NCBI GenBank assembly: GCA_965197525.1
Contig: OZ240211.1
Coordinates: 800,001 to 864,000, forward strand
Source of the DNA: Nitrosopumilus sp.
GTDB lineage: Archaea; Thermoproteota; Nitrososphaeria; Nitrososphaerales; Nitrosopumilaceae
DNA: 64,000 nucleotides
Direction: 5' to 3'
The notes below the pieces were generated by a model. The model saw only the letters and a program-made list of their open reading frames with translations, had not been told where the DNA came from and did no database searches. The first letter of the stretch is position 1. Every line of letters begins with the position of its first letter. Positions 1-56,483 of this stretch are shown here, in pieces. The position numbers and the translations under genes are program-made.

Positions 1-1272
1 GAGGGTTAACCCCTATAAACTTGACTTTGACATATCGACTATTCGGATTACCAATGGTGTGCCGGGTTCCGTCATCGCCGGCTCAAAAGTGCCGGACTGC
101 GCTTCATCTATGTCATCTCTACTACCCCTAAACCTAGGGGGCAGCTTGCGTGATATGTTCATGGCAGCGATAATATCCCTGTCCATAAACAAACCGCAAT
201 TATTACACGACATTTTACGATGTTGTTGCATGTCCTCTTGGAGTCTCTTTCCGCATTTCGGACACTGCGTGCTCGTGTTTCTTGGGTCTACTGTCTCGAC
301 TGGAGGCAACCCGACCCATTGGGCTTTGTATTCTATTTGGCGTTGTAACTCGTAGAATTGCCACCCGTTCAATCTACGTCTGTACTTGTTACCTTGACTG
401 TTTCCTTTTCGGTACAATTTTCTTATTCCTTTCAGGTTTTCCATGACGATTGCAGTCTTGTTTTTGACTGCGTTGTATACCATATCCTTTGAGATTCTGT
501 GGATGTACTGCTTTGTTCTATTGCTCATTCGTCTCTGTCTTTGTTTCCAGAATTGACCTTTCTTCCTGCGATCATTTCTGTGGAATCCTGCCCTGGCGTG
601 TATTGTGTTCTCCTTTATGGATAACAGTTTATTTGTCTTGTAGACTGTCACCTCTTCCTCGTTCCCACACGTCACATTTCTTAGGTTTCTGTCTATTCCC
701 ATTTTCTTGGTGCACTCTATCTCTTGTACTGTTTTTGAAACACAAAGACTGATGTTCAGAGCAGTCAATGAAAACGAGCGCACCGTCAAGGCGGGATCAG
801 ATAGGATTTTTTGGGTGTGAACGTTGAGTAAAATGTTGATTGGGTTATGTTTCTTGTATGGGATTGTGAGTAGTGCACCGCTGTGTCGTATACCGTAACA
901 GTTTGTCATAAAGGGATTTTTGACTATTGGGTCTCTTATTCTGACACCTCGTTTGATTGACTGTTTTCTGTTTGATAACATGCCTGCAGCTCGTGATATT
1001 GCATTTAGTTTGTATGAAGACAGGATGTCATAATTACGTAATTCATGATAACATAACATGGACAACCTCTTCATATTGTGAGTGTCTTCTTTCAATCCTG
1101 TCTTGATGCAATGATTGACCATCTTTGTGAATATAGCCATCATATCCATTAGATCAGAGTTCGGCGTATATTTCTGTGATATTGACTTTATCGCTTTCAA
1201 CGAATATCTTACGGTTTAGAGGTTTATACAATTTAGGGATTAACAGATAACCCTCGATAACTTCACAGAACC
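1..1272 (-). mobile_element. TIR-bounded tnpB element, copy A (one end cut by the window edge)
   Basis: TIR taaccctcgataacttcacagaacc at 1248-1272 is identical to that of copy B. The window starts inside the other TIR (gagggtta). Near-identical to 17000-18287 in inverted orientation. Confidence 0.9.
13..1200 (-). CDS. tnpB: RNA-guided endonuclease TnpB (IS200/IS605 OrfB family)
   Basis: RuvC motifs GIDRN, IVMENL and DRDIIAAMNI; Zn finger CPKCG...CNNCG; TTG start. Confidence 0.93.
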   Translation of the reverse strand: MKAIKSISQKYTPNSDLMDMMAIFTKMVNHCIKTGLKEDTHNMKRLSMLCYHELRNYDILSSYKLNAISRAAGMLSNRKQSIKRGVRIRDPIVKNPFMTNCYGIRHSGALLTIPYKKHNPINILLNVHTQKILSDPALTVRSFSLTALNISLCVSKTVQEIECTKKMGIDRNLRNVTCGNEEEVTVYKTNKLLSIKENTIHARAGFHRNDRRKKGQFWKQRQRRMSNRTKQYIHRISKDMVYNAVKNKTAIVMENLKGIRKLYRKGNSQGNKYRRRLNGWQFYELQRQIEYKAQWVGLPPVETVDPRNTSTQCPKCGKRLQEDMQQHRKMSCNNCGLFMDRDIIAAMNISRKLPPRFRGSRDDIDEAQSGTFEPAMTEPGTPLVIRIVDMSKSSL

Positions 1273-3314: not shown

Positions 3315-3350
3315 TGTAAAAAGAGTCAGTATAATAATCTTATATAATCA

Positions 3351-3738
3351 GGTTCTGTGAAGTTATAGAGACCTGAAACATGAATGAATGAATATCGTTA
3401 ATTATATCATAATTATGTTGAATCCAACAAACACGAACACGCAATGTCCAGGATGCGGAAAGATATTCCAAGAGGACATGCAATACAGATGTAAAATATC
3501 GTGTACTAATTGTGGATTGTTCATGAACAGCAACAACATTGCCATGAACACATCTCACAAGCTGTCCCCTAGGTTTAGGGATAGTAGAGGTGACATACAT
3601 GAAGCGCAGTCTGGCACTTTTGAGCTGGCAATGTCGGAACCTAGTACACCGGTAATCCGAATAGTCGATATGTCAAAGTCAAGTAATAGGAGAAACACAC
3701 CTTGGTAAATCAACGGGTACCTATAACTTCACAGAACC
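3351..3738 (+). mobile_element. 388-bp non-autonomous mini-element carrying the tnpB 3' end
   Basis: 18-bp TIR ggttctgtgaagttatag / ctataacttcacagaacc; 8-bp TSD tataatca at 3343-3350 and 3739-3746. Confidence 0.92.
3388..3708 (+). pseudogene. tnpB: tnpB 3' fragment (Zn finger, degenerate RuvC-III, putative omegaRNA region)
   Basis: NTNTQCPGCGK...CTNCGLFM...IAMNTSHKLSPRFRDSRGD aligns with the C-terminus of the full copies; RuvC-III DRD is replaced by NSN. Confidence 0.85.
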
Positions 3739-16753: not shown

Positions 16754-16999
16754 TGATTTAGCAATAAATTTAGAGCATTATAACTTTTTGAATGCGATGA
16801 TTTCATTACAATTTTAATAGCAGTTCTAAGATCAGCATGATTAGACAAAAATGATCAAATTGACTCTGTTACCATTTGGAATCAATTCATCGTATCACCT
16901 TGTTGTTTTTAGCTCCAGATAACCCGACAGAACCATAAAATTCACATCCCCATAACGTTACAGAACCGTATATCCAATAAGGTAATTAATGAAAAAGAG

Positions 17000-18287
17000 G
17001 GTTCTGTGAAGTTATCGAGGGTTATCTGTTAATCCCTAAATTGTATAAACCTCTAAACCGTAAGATATTCGTTGAAAGCGATAAAGTCATTATCACAGAA
17101 ATATACGCCGAACTCTGATCTAATGGATATGATGGCTATATTCACAAAGATGGTCAATCATTGCATCAAGACAGGGTTGAAAGAAGACACTCACAATATG
17201 AAGAGGTTGTCCATGTTATGTTATCATGAATTACGTAATTATGACATCCTGTCTTCATACAAACTAAATGCAATATCACGAGCTGCAGGCATGTTATCAA
17301 ACAGAAAACAGTCAATCAAACGAGGTGTCAGAATAAGAGACCCAATAGTCAAAAATCCCTTTATGACAAACTGTTACGGCATAAAACACAACGGTGCACT
17401 ATTAACAATCCCATACAAGAAACATAACCCAATCAACATTTTACTCAACGATCACACCCAAAAAATCCTATCTGATCCCGCCTTGACGGTGCGCTCGTTT
17501 TCATTGACTGCTCTGAACATCAGTCTTTGTGTTTCAAAAACAGTACAAGAGATAGAGTGCACCAAGAAAATGGGAATAGACAGAAACCTAAGAAATGTGA
17601 CGTGTGGGAACGAGAAAGAGGTGACAGTCTACAAGACAAACAAACTGTTATCCATAAAGGAGAACACAATACACGCTAGGGCAGGATTCCACAGAAATGA
17701 TCGCAGAAAGAAAGGGCAATTCTGGAAACAAAGACAGAGACGAATGAGCAATAGAACAAAGCGGTACATCCACAGAATCTCAAAGGATATGGTATACAAC
17801 GCAGTCAAAAACAAGACTGCAATCGTCATGGAAAACCTGAAAGGAATAAGAAAATTGTACCGAAAAGGAAACAGTCAAGGTAACAAGTACAGGCGTAGAT
17901 TGAACGGGTGGCAATTCTACGAGTTACAACGCCAAATAGAATACAAAGCCCAATGGGTCGGGTTGCCTCCAGTCGAGACAGTAGACCCAAGAAACACGAG
18001 CACGCAGTGTCCGAAATGCGGAAAGAGACTCCAAGAGGACATGCAACAACATCGTAAAATGTCGTGTAATAATTGCGGTTTGTTTATGGACAGGGATATT
18101 ATCGCTGCCATGAACATATCACGCAAGCTGCCCCCTAGGTTTAGGGGTAGTAGAGATGACATAGATGAAGCGCAGTCCGGCACTTTTGAGCAGGCGATGA
18201 CGGAACCCGGCACACCATTGGTAATCCGAATAGTCGATATGTCAAAGTCAAGTTATAGGGGTTAACCCTCGATAACTTCACAGAACC
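17000..18287 (+). mobile_element. TIR-bounded tnpB element, copy B (1288 bp, complete)
   Basis: Perfect 25-bp TIR ggttctgtgaagttatcgagggtta (17000-17024 / 18263-18287); 8-bp TSD aaaaagag (16992-16999 / 18288-18295). Confidence 0.95.
17072..18265 (+). CDS. tnpB: RNA-guided endonuclease TnpB
   Basis: Intact RuvC D/E/D motifs and Zn finger; differs from copy A at only a few residues. Confidence 0.93.
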   Translation: MKAIKSLSQKYTPNSDLMDMMAIFTKMVNHCIKTGLKEDTHNMKRLSMLCYHELRNYDILSSYKLNAISRAAGMLSNRKQSIKRGVRIRDPIVKNPFMTNCYGIKHNGALLTIPYKKHNPINILLNDHTQKILSDPALTVRSFSLTALNISLCVSKTVQEIECTKKMGIDRNLRNVTCGNEKEVTVYKTNKLLSIKENTIHARAGFHRNDRRKKGQFWKQRQRRMSNRTKRYIHRISKDMVYNAVKNKTAIVMENLKGIRKLYRKGNSQGNKYRRRLNGWQFYELQRQIEYKAQWVGLPPVETVDPRNTSTQCPKCGKRLQEDMQQHRKMSCNNCGLFMDRDIIAAMNISRKLPPRFRGSRDDIDEAQSGTFEQAMTEPGTPLVIRIVDMSKSSYRG

Positions 18288-18615
18288 AAAAAGAGACATC
18301 ATAAACATGCAAAGATTGTGTAGGTATGATCCAACTGGCAAAGGAACGCATTGTTTTTGTATAGATATTGACGCACAAAAAGGAATCAAAAAATGCTGTA
18401 AATGCAATCAATGGAACGTTCAGGGGAATGACTGGACTAGTAATGAAGATTTTAGATAAGTAAATGCACGAGATCACAGGAATGGAATAATCACGAACTA
18501 ATTCTCTGAATTGATACTAGGAGCTTTGTTTATGACATGTACGTATAACCGATAGGAGTACTGAAAACCCTCTCTTCATTCTATCTAATGGTTTTTATCA
18601 GGGATTCTTTGAATT

Positions 18616-38767: not shown

Positions 38768-38810
38768 GTTGTTTTGACTATTCTCGTCAATTAAAAAGTA
38801 TCCAGCCCTT

Positions 38811-40157
38811 GGTTCTGTGTAATCTTCGGGTGTTTTTTATGTTATTCATACCAAAACTAAACATTGTTTCAACAACGTAAAGTAACACCTTGATGATTAC
38901 TTGACTTTGACATATCGACTATTCGGATTACCGGTGTACAGGGTTCCGACATCGTTGACTCAAAAGTATCAAACTTCGCTTCATTTATGCCATCTCTACT
39001 ATCCCTAAACCTAGGGGACAGTTTGCGTGATATATTCATGGCAGCAATTACATCTCTGTCCATGAACAATCCGCAATTATTGCACAACATTTTACGACTG
39101 TGTTGCATGTCCTCTTGGAGTTTCTTTCCGCATTTTGGACATTGCGTGCTTGTGCGTTTTGGGTCTACAAATTCGACTGGAGGTAGCCCGACCCACTGTG
39201 CTTTGTATTCTATCTGTCTTTGCAGTTCAAAGAATTGCCATCCGTTCAATCTGCGTCTGTATTTGTTACCTTGACTGTTCCCTTTCCTGTATAGTTTTCT
39301 AATTCCTTTCAGGTTTTCTAGAACAATAACTGCTTTTTCTTTGACTGCATTATCCACAATATCTTTGGATATTTTGTGGATGTATTGTTTTGTTCTGTTG
39401 GTCATTCTTTTCTGTCTCTCTTTCCAAAACTGATCTTTCTTTCTGCGATCATTTCTGCGGAATCCAGCTCTAGCATGTATTGTGTTCTCTTTGATTGAGA
39501 GCAGTTTGTTTGTCTTGTAGAATGTTACCTTTTCCTCATTTCCACAGGTGACGTTTCTAAGGTTCCGGTCTACTCCCACTGTCTTGGTACACTCTATTTG
39601 TTCTGTTTCTTTGGAAACACAGAGATTGATGTTGAGGGCAGTCAATGAAAATGAGCGTACTGTCAAGGCAGGATCAGACAGGATTTTTTGTGTGTGTTGG
39701 TTTAACAGGATGTTGATAGAATTTCTACTCTTGTATGGAATTGTCAACAGTGCACCATTGTGTTTTACTCCATAACAGTTTGTGATAAATGGTTTTTTTA
39801 CCGTTGGATACTTTACTTTGATGCCACGTTTCACGGATTGTTTTCTGTTAGCTAGTATACCTGCAGCTCTTGATATTGCATTGAGTTTGTATGATGATAA
39901 AATATCATAGTTTCTCAATTCGTGATAACACAGCATAGACAATCGCTTCATGTTATGGGTATCTTCTTTTAACCCTATCTTGATACAGCAGTTAACCATC
40001 TCTGTGAATGTGACCATCATACCCACGAGGTCTGAATTCGGTGTATATTTTTGTGCTATTGACTTTATCGCCCTCAACGGCTATATTGTGATTCAAGGAT
40101 ATTTAAGTGCAGATATACTGAGTCACAGTTATCAGCACCCGAAGATTACACAGAACC
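38811..40157 (-). mobile_element. TIR-bounded tnpB element, copy C (1347 bp), with a different TIR variant
   Basis: Perfect 22-bp TIR ggttctgtgtaatcttcgggtg (38811-38832 / 40136-40157); 8-bp TSD cagccctt (38803-38810 / 40158-40165). Confidence 0.95.
38869..40077 (-). CDS. tnpB: RNA-guided endonuclease TnpB (more divergent paralog)
   Basis: GVDRN, IVLENL and DRDVIAAMNI; Zn finger intact. Confidence 0.93.
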   Translation of the reverse strand: MRAIKSIAQKYTPNSDLVGMMVTFTEMVNCCIKIGLKEDTHNMKRLSMLCYHELRNYDILSSYKLNAISRAAGILANRKQSVKRGIKVKYPTVKKPFITNCYGVKHNGALLTIPYKSRNSINILLNQHTQKILSDPALTVRSFSLTALNINLCVSKETEQIECTKTVGVDRNLRNVTCGNEEKVTFYKTNKLLSIKENTIHARAGFRRNDRRKKDQFWKERQKRMTNRTKQYIHKISKDIVDNAVKEKAVIVLENLKGIRKLYRKGNSQGNKYRRRLNGWQFFELQRQIEYKAQWVGLPPVEFVDPKRTSTQCPKCGKKLQEDMQHSRKMLCNNCGLFMDRDVIAAMNISRKLSPRFRDSRDGINEAKFDTFESTMSEPCTPVIRIVDMSKSSNHQGVTLRC

Positions 40158-41207
40158 CAGCCCTTTAAAGTCAATATCAACTGAAAAACAGTTGTAACGA
40201 CCATCTTGAAATTGGTTTATGGTACGCTGCATATTGGAATGATCAGTCAAGGCAAAGACACATCCACCCCCTCCAGCACCGGTAAGTTTGGCGCCAAATG
40301 ATGTGGTCTGACCCACCCTTACCATGTCTCGTAGCGTGTCATTTGAGACGCCAATCATCTCAAGATATTCTTGGTTACGCCTGACTTGTTGACCCAGTTC
40401 TGATATATCATTACCTGTTTTTAACAACTGTAACACATCATGTACTAGTTTGGCCTCATCATCGCACAATCTAGAGAACAGCTCAGGGTTACTGTCTTTG
40501 AACTGACGTACATTTGCAACTATAGACTCTGTTGAATGCTGTAAATTTGAATTGGCAATTACCAGATTAAAAGTAGATTTGGGGGAGATACTTGCAAACC
40601 CATGTTCCTTATCATAGGTTATAATTCCCCCATAGGTGCACACTGTACAATCAGCACCCGATGTATTCTCAAATATCGTTCTCTCAGCTTGTATTGCCAG
40701 ATGTAAAATCTCTTCTCTGGATGCTTGTTTAAACAATCCAGAGATTGCAGCTGCCCCTGCTACACAGCATGCAGATGACGAGCCAAGACCAACACCTAGT
40801 GGAATTTCGGATTCTACTGTAATGCGTATTCCAGTGTTATTGTTGCTAGTACTGTCACGAGTATTGTTATTAGTGTTACCGTTAGTATTGTTGTTATCAT
40901 CACCGTCATTGATATTATTTTTATTATCATTATTATTTACATAGCCATTATTATCTTGATCATGCATCAACTTGTCTGCAAGATAATACAATGGTTTTAG
41001 TGGATAATCAATCTCAGATATAGGTGTATGTGGGGAAACGCATAAATTACCAACGTCAGAAACAATAGAGATTTTATTATCGTTGGTGTGCTCGGCAGTT
41101 ACATAAACTCTTCTATCAATTGCGCAAAGTATTGCTTGAATACCATACACTACAAAATGCTCTCCAAATAAAATTACTTTACCTGGTGCCGATGATTTAG
41201 ATTTCAA
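40146..41207 (-). CDS. mvk: mevalonate kinase with an Asn-rich insertion; last codons supplied by the element TIR
   Basis: PGKVILFGEH, PLGVGLGSSSA and KLTGAGGGG. Confidence 0.93.
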   Translation of the reverse strand: MKSKSSAPGKVILFGEHFVVYGIQAILCAIDRRVYVTAEHTNDNKISIVSDVGNLCVSPHTPISEIDYPLKPLYYLADKLMHDQDNNGYVNNNDNKNNINDGDDNNNTNGNTNNNTRDSTSNNNTGIRITVESEIPLGVGLGSSSACCVAGAAAISGLFKQASREEILHLAIQAERTIFENTSGADCTVCTYGGIITYDKEHGFASISPKSTFNLVIANSNLQHSTESIVANVRQFKDSNPELFSRLCDDEAKLVHDVLQLLKTGNDISELGQQVRRNQEYLEMIGVSNDTLRDMVRVGQTTSFGAKLTGAGGGGCVFALTDHSNMQRTINQFQDGRYNCFSVDIDFKGLGSV

Positions 41208-52599: not shown

Positions 52600-53018
52600 G
52601 GTTCTGTAAAGTTATAGAGACCTTGGCAATGCTACGAATTACAACGCCAAATAGAATACAAAGCCCAATGGGTCGGGCTCCCACCAGTCGAATATGTAGA
52701 CCCAGAAAACACGAGCAAGACGTGTCCAAGATGCGGAAAGAAACTCCAAGAGGACATGCAACACAGTCGTAAAATGTCGTGTAATAATTGCGGATTGTAC
52801 AGGGATAGAGACATTGTAGCTGCCATGAACATATCACGCAAACCGTCTCCTAGGTTTAGGGATAGTAGAGATGACATAGGTGAAGCGCAGTCCGGTGTTT
52901 TTGAACCGGCGATGATGGAACCCTGCATACCGGTAATCCAGATAGTCGATATGTCAAAGTCAAGTGATAGGAGGATATAACCTGTTAAATCAACAGATAC
53001 CTATAACTTCACAGAACC
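52600..53018 (+). mobile_element. 419-bp mini-element carrying the tnpB 3' end; no matching TSD
   Basis: TIR ggttctgtaaagttatag / ctataacttcacagaacc (one mismatch); flanks tgttcaag and gttaataa differ. Confidence 0.88.
52626..52980 (+). pseudogene. tnpB: tnpB 3' fragment
   Basis: WQCYELQRQIEYKAQW...CPRCG...CNNCG..DRDIVAAMNI...VDMSKSS. Confidence 0.88.
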
Positions 53019-56104: not shown

Positions 56105-56483
56105 ACAAGATAATGTACATAATTGTATATATACATAACTGTATATATACATAATTGTGTACTTGGAGATGAAATTGTACCCAAAATTTAGCCGATTCCA
56201 TTCCCAAATTAAGCAAACTTGGCAATATAAAGTAGATATTACATGCACACATACAATATTGCAAATGCACGCTTTCAGTCTTGATTGTACAACCACACAT
56301 GACAATTATGGTAATGATATGCGTAGTTAACGACGCAAATATCTATGTGTGCTCTAAAAGTTTTCATGGTGAAACCTGAAAATGCCTTGTTATCAAGTCA
56401 AATCTCAAAGGATTCAACCCCTCGACACGCAACAGGAGAAATTACCACGCGCGAATGCAACAGAACCTGATCCACTTATTCAT

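Follow-up and report, generated by a model that had tools for sequence, protein, structure and literature searches.

TnpB is the ancestor of Cas12, and to our knowledge its natural role is understood only for IS605 and IS607 elements, which excise scarlessly. In their main description of DDE-associated TnpBs, Altae-Tran et al. (2023; PMC10691335) give six branches (DDE-1 to DDE-6) with inverted terminal repeats, and take solo TnpBs whose ends are nearly identical to those of transposase-bearing elements to imply mobilization in trans. A 2026 review names IS630, ISL2 and IS1031 as the partners of DDE-associated TnpBs, describes OMEGA modules as rare in prokaryotic DDE transposons, and asks of what use a homing nuclease is to elements that make target duplications (PMC13565253). 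In a review of the IS6 family (PMC7986276), a single listed member has a passenger gene, two entries are miniature elements and TnpB does not appear; our literature search found no paper on TnpB with IS6 or on TnpB in Nitrosopumilus. Here we describe tnpB elements with inverted ends and 8-bp target-site duplications (TSDs) in a 64,000-nucleotide stretch of Nitrosopumilus sp. DNA (the window), which is bases 800001–864000 of a 2.21-Mb single-contig genome (39.6% G+C, 99% complete). These elements share their ends with elements encoding an IS6-like DDE transposase, and they lie beside a one-sided motif that is probably recognized by TnpB.

A tnpB element that inserts as a unit

The element at 17000–18287 on the plus strand, which we call copy B, is 1288 bp long, and its sole gene is an intact tnpB of 397 amino acids. 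Its arms (17000–17024 and 18263–18287; GGTTCTGTGAAGTTATCGAGGGTTA) are 25 nt long and 100% complementary, and the 8-mer AAAAAGAG is duplicated exactly on its two sides, at 16992–16999 and 18288–18295. The only long open reading frame (ORF), at 17072–18265 (+), has its stop codon 22 nt from the element end and matches both Pfam PF07282 (4.5e-21, 75.2 bits versus a cut-off of 26.3) and NCBIfam NF040570 guided_TnpB (122.6 bits, cut-off 100). The RuvC residues D170, E254 and D342 are intact, as are two CxxC pairs that form a zinc ribbon; these pairs and the motifs GIDRN, VMENL and MDRDII align with solved TnpB and Cas12f chains. An earlier note, made by reading the letters of this stretch, had described an intact tnpB filling 1288 bp between flawless 25-nt ends, an 8-bp TSD that is exact, and no transposase gene inside any copy. 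Arms, duplication and reading frame bear out this description, as does the ORF content of the copies in the window. The note's claim that the same design recurs at 38811–40157 (copy C) and 3351–3738 also held, with TSDs CAGCCCTT and TATAATCA. Its two partial copies need separate treatment: 1–1272 (copy A) belongs to a 1289-bp element that has a TSD, CAAGCACG, and 52600–53018 has good ends and no TSD (Table 1). The sequence GGTTCTGT occurs 14 times in the window versus 1.8 expected by chance, and the 25-mer end occurs three times versus 0 expected.

Sites without the element are found in relatives. At the site of copy C, seven genomes of the same genus have a single 8-mer and no inverted repeat, as the earlier note had expected of empty sites, and once the element and one 8-mer are removed they align without gaps over the junction (...AAAAAGTATC CAGnCCTT TAAAATC...). 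For copy B, a 26-kb contig from a related organism (run X5) spans both flanks; 237 different letters replace 16837–18287, and homology restarts exactly at 18288, the first base beyond the right end. The element therefore goes in whole and duplicates 8 bp of its target.

A transposase family with the same ends

Seven loci in the genome match DDE_Tnp_IS240 (PF13610), at 42–53 bits versus a cut-off of 27, and at least five of the transposases are intact proteins combining a SWIM zinc finger with this domain, within GGTTCTGT-ended elements that have 8-bp duplications. The proteins are 374–383 aa long, with a SWIM finger and a zinc ribbon N-terminal to the DDE domain. Their best NCBIfam match is IS6 (NF033587), which they cover over positions 1–200 of 202 with 103–121 bits, where the cut-off is 125. 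By these matches the transposases are IS6-like, not typical IS6.

One intact transposase element of 1970 bp (746475–748444, TSD CTATTGTG) encodes a 378-aa protein, and its end agrees with that of the tnpB subfamily of copy C (subfamily C) over the first 18 nt (18/18). In other species of the genus, the end of a 1968-bp DDE element (L086) is identical over 20 nt to that of copy B, and the end of a 2699-bp DDE element (L081, TSD CTGTGGCA) is identical over 20 nt to that of subfamily C. Duplications of 8 bp flank the DDE elements at 746475, 1956395 and 917093 in this genome and L079, L081, L082 and L099 in relatives, and ends of the form GGTTCTGT(G/T/C)... are found in all subfamilies of tnpB element. 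Genes of this SWIM-DDE family are present in 47 of the 121 genus genomes searched. Compared base by base, the tnpB element thus shares its ends with elements of a SWIM-zinc-finger and DDE_Tnp_IS240 transposase.

Profile searches of this 99%-complete genome found no match to the Y1 transposase (PF01797) and none to the serine recombinase (PF00239), and the genome holds no other candidate transposase. No tnpB and DDE gene lie together within one pair of ends in this genome, and in relatives, the 4 kb around each of 24 tnpB loci contained no DDE gene other than one fragment. Because the ends are shared, Y1 and serine genes are missing, and tnpB and DDE genes were not found together in one element, mobilization in trans is the natural reading, and we infer that the DDE transposase moves the tnpB element in this way.

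The earlier note had proposed that tnpB spreads by a DDE transposase acting in trans, and the shared ends and the lack of Y1 and serine genes argue for this. A transposase with matching ends, which it had suggested looking for, exists both here (18/18) and in other species (20/20); a tnpA gene defining some other mobile unit, which it had named as a result that would count against it, does not occur in this genome in either the PF01797 or the PF00239 form. Its description of the element as IS6-like is upheld by the 8-bp TSD, the ends and the DDE_Tnp_IS240 domain, and has to be qualified in that the transposase scores just below the IS6 cut-off and carries a SWIM/zinc extension. The capture of the nuclease that it also proposed would imply a direction of evolution and is conjectural.

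Other IS6-like elements carry cargo resembling restriction-modification systems (G000:C1:699962–703151, L010; and 917093–923763, L011). In one, genes for an N6/N4 DNA methylase and then an HNH endonuclease lie beside the DDE gene; in the other, methylase and HNH are fused in a single 475-aa protein. The larger of the two elements is bounded by ends GGGGCTGTTAAGTTCAYGGTAG with TSD CATTATTT and contains the nested ends of other elements. Duplications of 8 bp also accompany a second, unrelated family of terminal inverted repeats (TIRs; GGGAATTACATACTTGGATTAC), whose members are 1637-bp units at 545581–547217 and 879513–881149 and a 386-bp miniature at 562158–562543 (G000:C1).

Selection and age of the copies

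Genome-wide there are 35 full-length tnpB copies, with 60–97% amino acid identity to copy B and at least five end-sequence subfamilies. The ORF is intact in 31 of the 35, a few being broken. Among the intact copies the catalytic D-E-D and zinc residues are kept in 30–31 of 31, and the ratio of nonsynonymous to synonymous substitution rates (dN/dS) is 0.12 for old pairs and 0.2–0.4 for young pairs. Purifying selection acts on tnpB, whose catalytic residues are preserved. A search with the conserved RNA core described below found about 50 units, miniature derivatives included, and exact 8/8 duplications flank 27 RNA-core elements; 10–12 copies have no TSD. The youngest tnpB copies are 0.5–1.5% apart and none are identical, so no very recent burst is visible. 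Swapped 8-mers would betray intramolecular replicative transposition or recombination between copies; in a comparison of all element ends of the genome, the only such pairs were AT-rich and attributable to chance.

In another Nitrosopumilus metagenome-assembled genome (OZ245003.1), two inverted copies about 126 kb apart (L058 and L060) have exchanged their 8-bp duplications (TAGAAACT, TTATGTTA), the trace left when recombination between two copies inverts the DNA that separates them. Solo or truncated ends, stacked tens of bases apart, adjoin intact elements at several places (16909–16967 in the window, and G000:C1:917309/917372, 920321/920355 and 703092/703151). This stacking suggests repeated insertion at or beside existing ends, with later deletions.

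A structured RNA region that reaches the right end

The last 160–215 nt of the element are conserved in all subfamilies, well beyond what the variable C-terminal tail of TnpB needs. Miniature derivatives keep this region although the N-terminal two thirds of tnpB are gone, and an 18-nt deletion in some of them has taken out the RuvC-III motif as well. RNAalifold predicts 45 pairs from alignment A1 of the region, 12 of them changed on both sides: for example, at columns 156:167 there are 12 sequences with GC and 10 with AU, and at columns 177:210 there are 14 with CG and 10 with UA. The covariation score is 0.208, versus 0.141 +/- 0.006 in shuffled alignments (0 of 500 reach 0.208) and 0.03–0.05 in a control with slid partners. 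A further predicted helix starts near 18073. An Rfam scan of 16800–18500 gave no family at E <= 1.

The subfamilies diverge beyond an invariant GUCAAAGUC. In each of them the bases that follow are predicted to form a stem with the inner portion of the repeat at the right end, leaving ACAGAACC unpaired; this pairing of the repeat with sequence upstream recurs across the five subfamilies in spite of their differing sequences. The putative binding site of the transposase would therefore double as the last stem of the RNA. As possible evidence of expression we considered contigs from a sponge metatranscriptome of related organisms (run X1), which have greater word depth over 17916–18368 than over the 5' part of tnpB. 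We discounted it because the depth of contigs is no guide to ranking regions within one gene, DNA may be present in the run, and in DNA runs, too, the 3' part is raised by miniature copies.

A one-sided motif beside the duplication

When the elements are oriented by tnpB, a motif appears at positions -11 to -9, directly 5' of the left duplication. All 21 full-length copies with TSDs have T at -10 and a purine at -9, and at -11 there is T in 15 copies and A in the other 6; there is no comparable motif on the opposite side or within the duplication. With the miniature copies included, [T/A]-T-[G/A] stands outside the TSD, on the tnpB-5' side only, in 27/27 RNA-bearing elements, where the chance per site is about 0.15. 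The TSDs and flanks themselves share no sequence (information content about 0). Among 12 tnpB copies without a TSD, nine have the motif on the left side, and in other Nitrosopumilus-type assemblies 10 of 11 copies fit it (nine are from OZ245003.1), the eleventh having CTG. In contrast, seven transposase-only elements with TSDs (three here and four in relatives) have the motif on 1 of 14 sides, about 2 being expected by chance. The empty sites of the nearest relatives already carry the motif, and therefore it belongs to the target. From these flank comparisons, [T/A]-T-[G/A] is likely to be the target-adjacent motif (TAM) of TnpB, and the contrast between RNA-bearing elements and those with a transposase only suggests that the nuclease has a real functional connection with the places at which elements persist.

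Two TSD-flanked miniatures with GGTTCTGT ends and no RNA core (G000:C1:883991–884841, 851 bp; and 1385894–1386101, 208 bp) have TTA beside the TSD, on one side each. A tnpB element in another species (L016; G021:C1, 1477–2744 of the locus), with 65% protein identity, GGTTCTGTGAAGTCATGGAGACCT ends and TSD CGAATAGT, has GTT in place of T-T-G/A before the duplication; its subfamily may read another motif.

The positions of these features in the window are given in Table 1.

Table 1. Element copies, ends and associated features in the window.
Feature	Position	Strand	Basis
Copy B, non-autonomous 1288-bp element	17000..18287	+	25-nt inverted repeat, 8-bp TSD
Left terminal inverted repeat, GGTTCTGTGAAGTTATCGAGGGTTA	17000..17024	+	Arm complementarity
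Right terminal inverted repeat; inner part is the predicted last stem of the guide-RNA-like scaffold	18263..18287	-	Arm complementarity and stem pairing
TSD AAAAAGAG, left copy	16992..16999	.	Sequence
TSD AAAAAGAG, right copy; putative first 8 nt of the guide	18288..18295	.	Sequence (guide role inferred)
ATG, candidate TAM: copy B form of [T/A]-T-[G/A], abutting the TSD 5'	16989..16991	+	Flank comparison
tnpB, 397 aa; RuvC D170/E254/D342, two CxxC pairs	17072..18265	+	Pfam, NCBIfam, alignment with solved chains
Structured, conserved RNA region resembling an omega-RNA scaffold; overlaps the 3' end of tnpB and extends to the element end	18127..18287	+	Alignment; 45 predicted pairs, 12 compensatory
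Two solo right-end remnants left of copy B, with ends at 16934 and 16967, 33 nt apart	16909..16967	+	Sequence
Copy C, 1347 bp; TSD CAGCCCTT at 38803–38810 and 40158–40165; tnpB 38869–40077 (-); motif TTA, minus strand, 40166–40168	38811..40157	-	Ends, TSD, empty sites in 7 relatives
Copy A, the window's share of a 1289-bp element (genome 799984–801272); TSD CAAGCACG (1273–1280); motif TTA, minus strand, 1281–1283	1..1272	-	Ends, TSD
388-bp miniature derivative: left end and RNA scaffold region, RuvC-III lost; TSD TATAATCA; motif TTA 3340–3342	3351..3738	+	Ends, TSD
419-bp miniature derivative: RNA scaffold region kept, good ends, no TSD (TGTTCAAG vs GTTAATAA)	52600..53018	+	Ends
Solo end GGTTCTGTTGCATTCGCGCGTGG of a different subfamily	56438..56467	-	End search

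How the elements may move and persist

The best explanation of these observations, and one that we consider probable, is a non-autonomous archaeal IS6-like element with OMEGA cargo, moved in trans by the DDE transposase, whose TnpB homes at TAM sites. The OMEGA module would consist of tnpB and the structured RNA that overlaps the 3' end of the gene and runs to the right end of the element. By analogy with IS605, the RNA would be transcribed across the right end, and the guide would consist of the 8-bp duplication and the flank beyond it. An unoccupied allele, with T-T-G/A followed by a single 8-mer and the flank, would be a complete target for TnpB, and in the occupied allele ...ACAGAACC would stand in the TAM position and the allele would be spared. 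TnpB would cut the unoccupied allele, and recombinational repair from the occupied copy would restore or spread the insertion, as in the homing of IS605. If TnpB cuts empty alleles that have a TAM and repair restores the insertion, then only TAM-adjacent insertions would persist, and homing of this kind would explain why the motif tracks the RNA-bearing elements rather than the transposase.

Several points weigh against this explanation. An autonomous element with exactly the end type of copy B is absent from this genome, and mobilization, cleavage and transcript ends are predictions from sequence comparison. Since the youngest copies have already diverged, the present activity of the elements is conjectural. 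The RNA region lies inside coding sequence and its copies are related, both of which may inflate the covariation, and the set of transposase-only elements used for comparison is small (7). The IS6 family is thought to move by replicative cointegrates without excision (PMC7986276), in which case there is no obvious need for restorative homing. Homing leaves the 100% association with the motif unaccounted for. A motif that all copies have must either be very strongly selected or act in the insertion itself. Three routes could lead to such an association: frequent excision with refilling at TAM sites only, drive in a recombining population, or help from TnpB at the insertion step. The first is uncertain for this divergent clade because IS6 elements are thought not to excise (PMC7986276).

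The third route would amount to an explanation of its own, in which TAM-bound TnpB, or TnpB with its RNA, helps the DDE transpososome to choose its target. Capture at insertion would then be directed by the TAM and not by the guide. That the motif stands beside all 27 RNA-bearing elements, every one of the youngest TSD-flanked copies among them, fits this proposal, and so do its absence from transposase-only elements of the same end types and its fixed spacing, since it abuts the site of the 8-bp staggered cut. We nonetheless hold TAM-directed capture to be unlikely, because no contact between TnpB and a DDE transposase is known, the TSDs and flanks have no sequence in common and so leave no guide pairing with new targets, and selection after insertion gives the same pattern without a new mechanism. 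The age of the copies gives no separation between target choice and later selection, as nearly all the youngest have the motif. It is more doubtful still that the motif is an intrinsic target preference of the moving transposase, with TnpB irrelevant to the choice of site and its TAM perhaps adapted to it as in IS605. The target site of the IS605 transposase does equal the TAM (PMC13565253), and here the two ends differ subterminally, which makes an asymmetric complex possible; against this, the seven transposase-bearing elements with the same end types have the motif no more often than chance would give.

That tnpB might play no part in the life cycle of the element, being passive cargo in decay or else a domesticated host regulator, could be argued from the lack of identical copies and the few broken ones. 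This seems to us highly improbable in view of the dN/dS values of 0.12–0.4 over 31 intact copies with conserved catalytic residues, the RNA structure held even in protein-less derivatives, and a one-sided motif that tracks the RNA-bearing elements. We give virtually no credence to an ordinary IS1341-type (IS200/IS605) element moved by a Y1 or serine TnpA, with its repeats and 8-mers incidental. Elements with tnpB only are usually filed under IS200/IS605, and there are partial matches to TIGR01766 and NF038281. However, the scores for NF038281 and NF038280 are far below their cut-offs, 27 duplications are exact, empty sites have one 8-mer, and the ends are common to DDE elements. An IS1341-type or IS607 identity is contradicted by the 25-nt TIR and the 8-bp TSD of copy B and by the lack of any PF01797 or PF00239 match in the genome.

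This compact archaeal family offers a direct test of the natural role of TnpB, since one genome holds 35 full-length copies (31 intact), matching transposases, RNA-only derivatives and a candidate TAM outside the variable TSD. If TAM-directed capture were true, with recognition of the TAM mechanically coupled to DDE transposition, every new copy would be born with a usable TAM and a guide starting at its own 8-bp duplication, and this would be a prokaryotic case of guide-independent, nuclease-assisted target choice, lying between OMEGA homing and CRISPR-associated transposons. A small TnpB with a short, 3-nt candidate TAM may also be of interest for genome editing.

Comparison with known systems

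The general idea of DDE-associated TnpBs, with solo copies moved in trans, was published in 2023 (PMC10691335). What is added here is an IS6-like partner, a covarying RNA with the inverted repeat as its predicted last stem, and the contrast in the motif between RNA-bearing and transposase-only elements. As in the main description of the DDE-associated TnpBs (PMC10691335), our elements have inverted ends, the 3' end of tnpB is less than 250 bp from the element end, and solo copies share their ends with transposase elements. They differ in that the partners named by the 2026 review (PMC13565253) are not IS6-like, where DDE-1 to DDE-6 are compared by their main description; that description has no TAM-like motif outside a variable 8-bp TSD, no inverted repeat serving as an RNA stem and no genome with about 35 copies.

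With the IS6 family (IS26, IS257 and the archaeal clades; Varani et al. 2021, PMC7986276) the elements have in common an 8-bp duplication, short repeats with GG tips and cTGTt, and a DDE_Tnp_IS240 transposase. Unlike typical IS6 members, they have a transposase of 374–383 aa with the SWIM/zinc extension and, where they carry it, a length of at least 1970 bp as opposed to about 800 bp. TnpB, the methylase-HNH cargo and the many miniature derivatives also set this family apart from the IS6 elements reviewed.

The tnpB-only elements of IS200/IS605 (the IS1341 group) likewise have a scaffold that overlaps the 3' end of tnpB and reaches the element end, and protein-less derivatives in which the RNA is retained; further likenesses would be a TAM on the 5' side and a guide from the 3' flank. 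Those elements lack inverted ends and duplications and depend on a Y1 TnpA (PMC13565253), whereas ours have TIRs, TSDs and no Y1 gene. There is also a likeness to Fanzor1 of eukaryotes, where a TnpB-family nuclease rides a DDE transposon with TIRs and TSDs. In Fanzors, however, the TAM includes the 5' TSD, and the 3' TSD falls within the scaffold of the RNA (PMC13565253), whereas here the variable TSD would start the guide and the candidate TAM lies just outside it. If this is correct, the "TSD problem" has been solved in another way than in Fanzors, with the duplication joining the guide and not the TAM.

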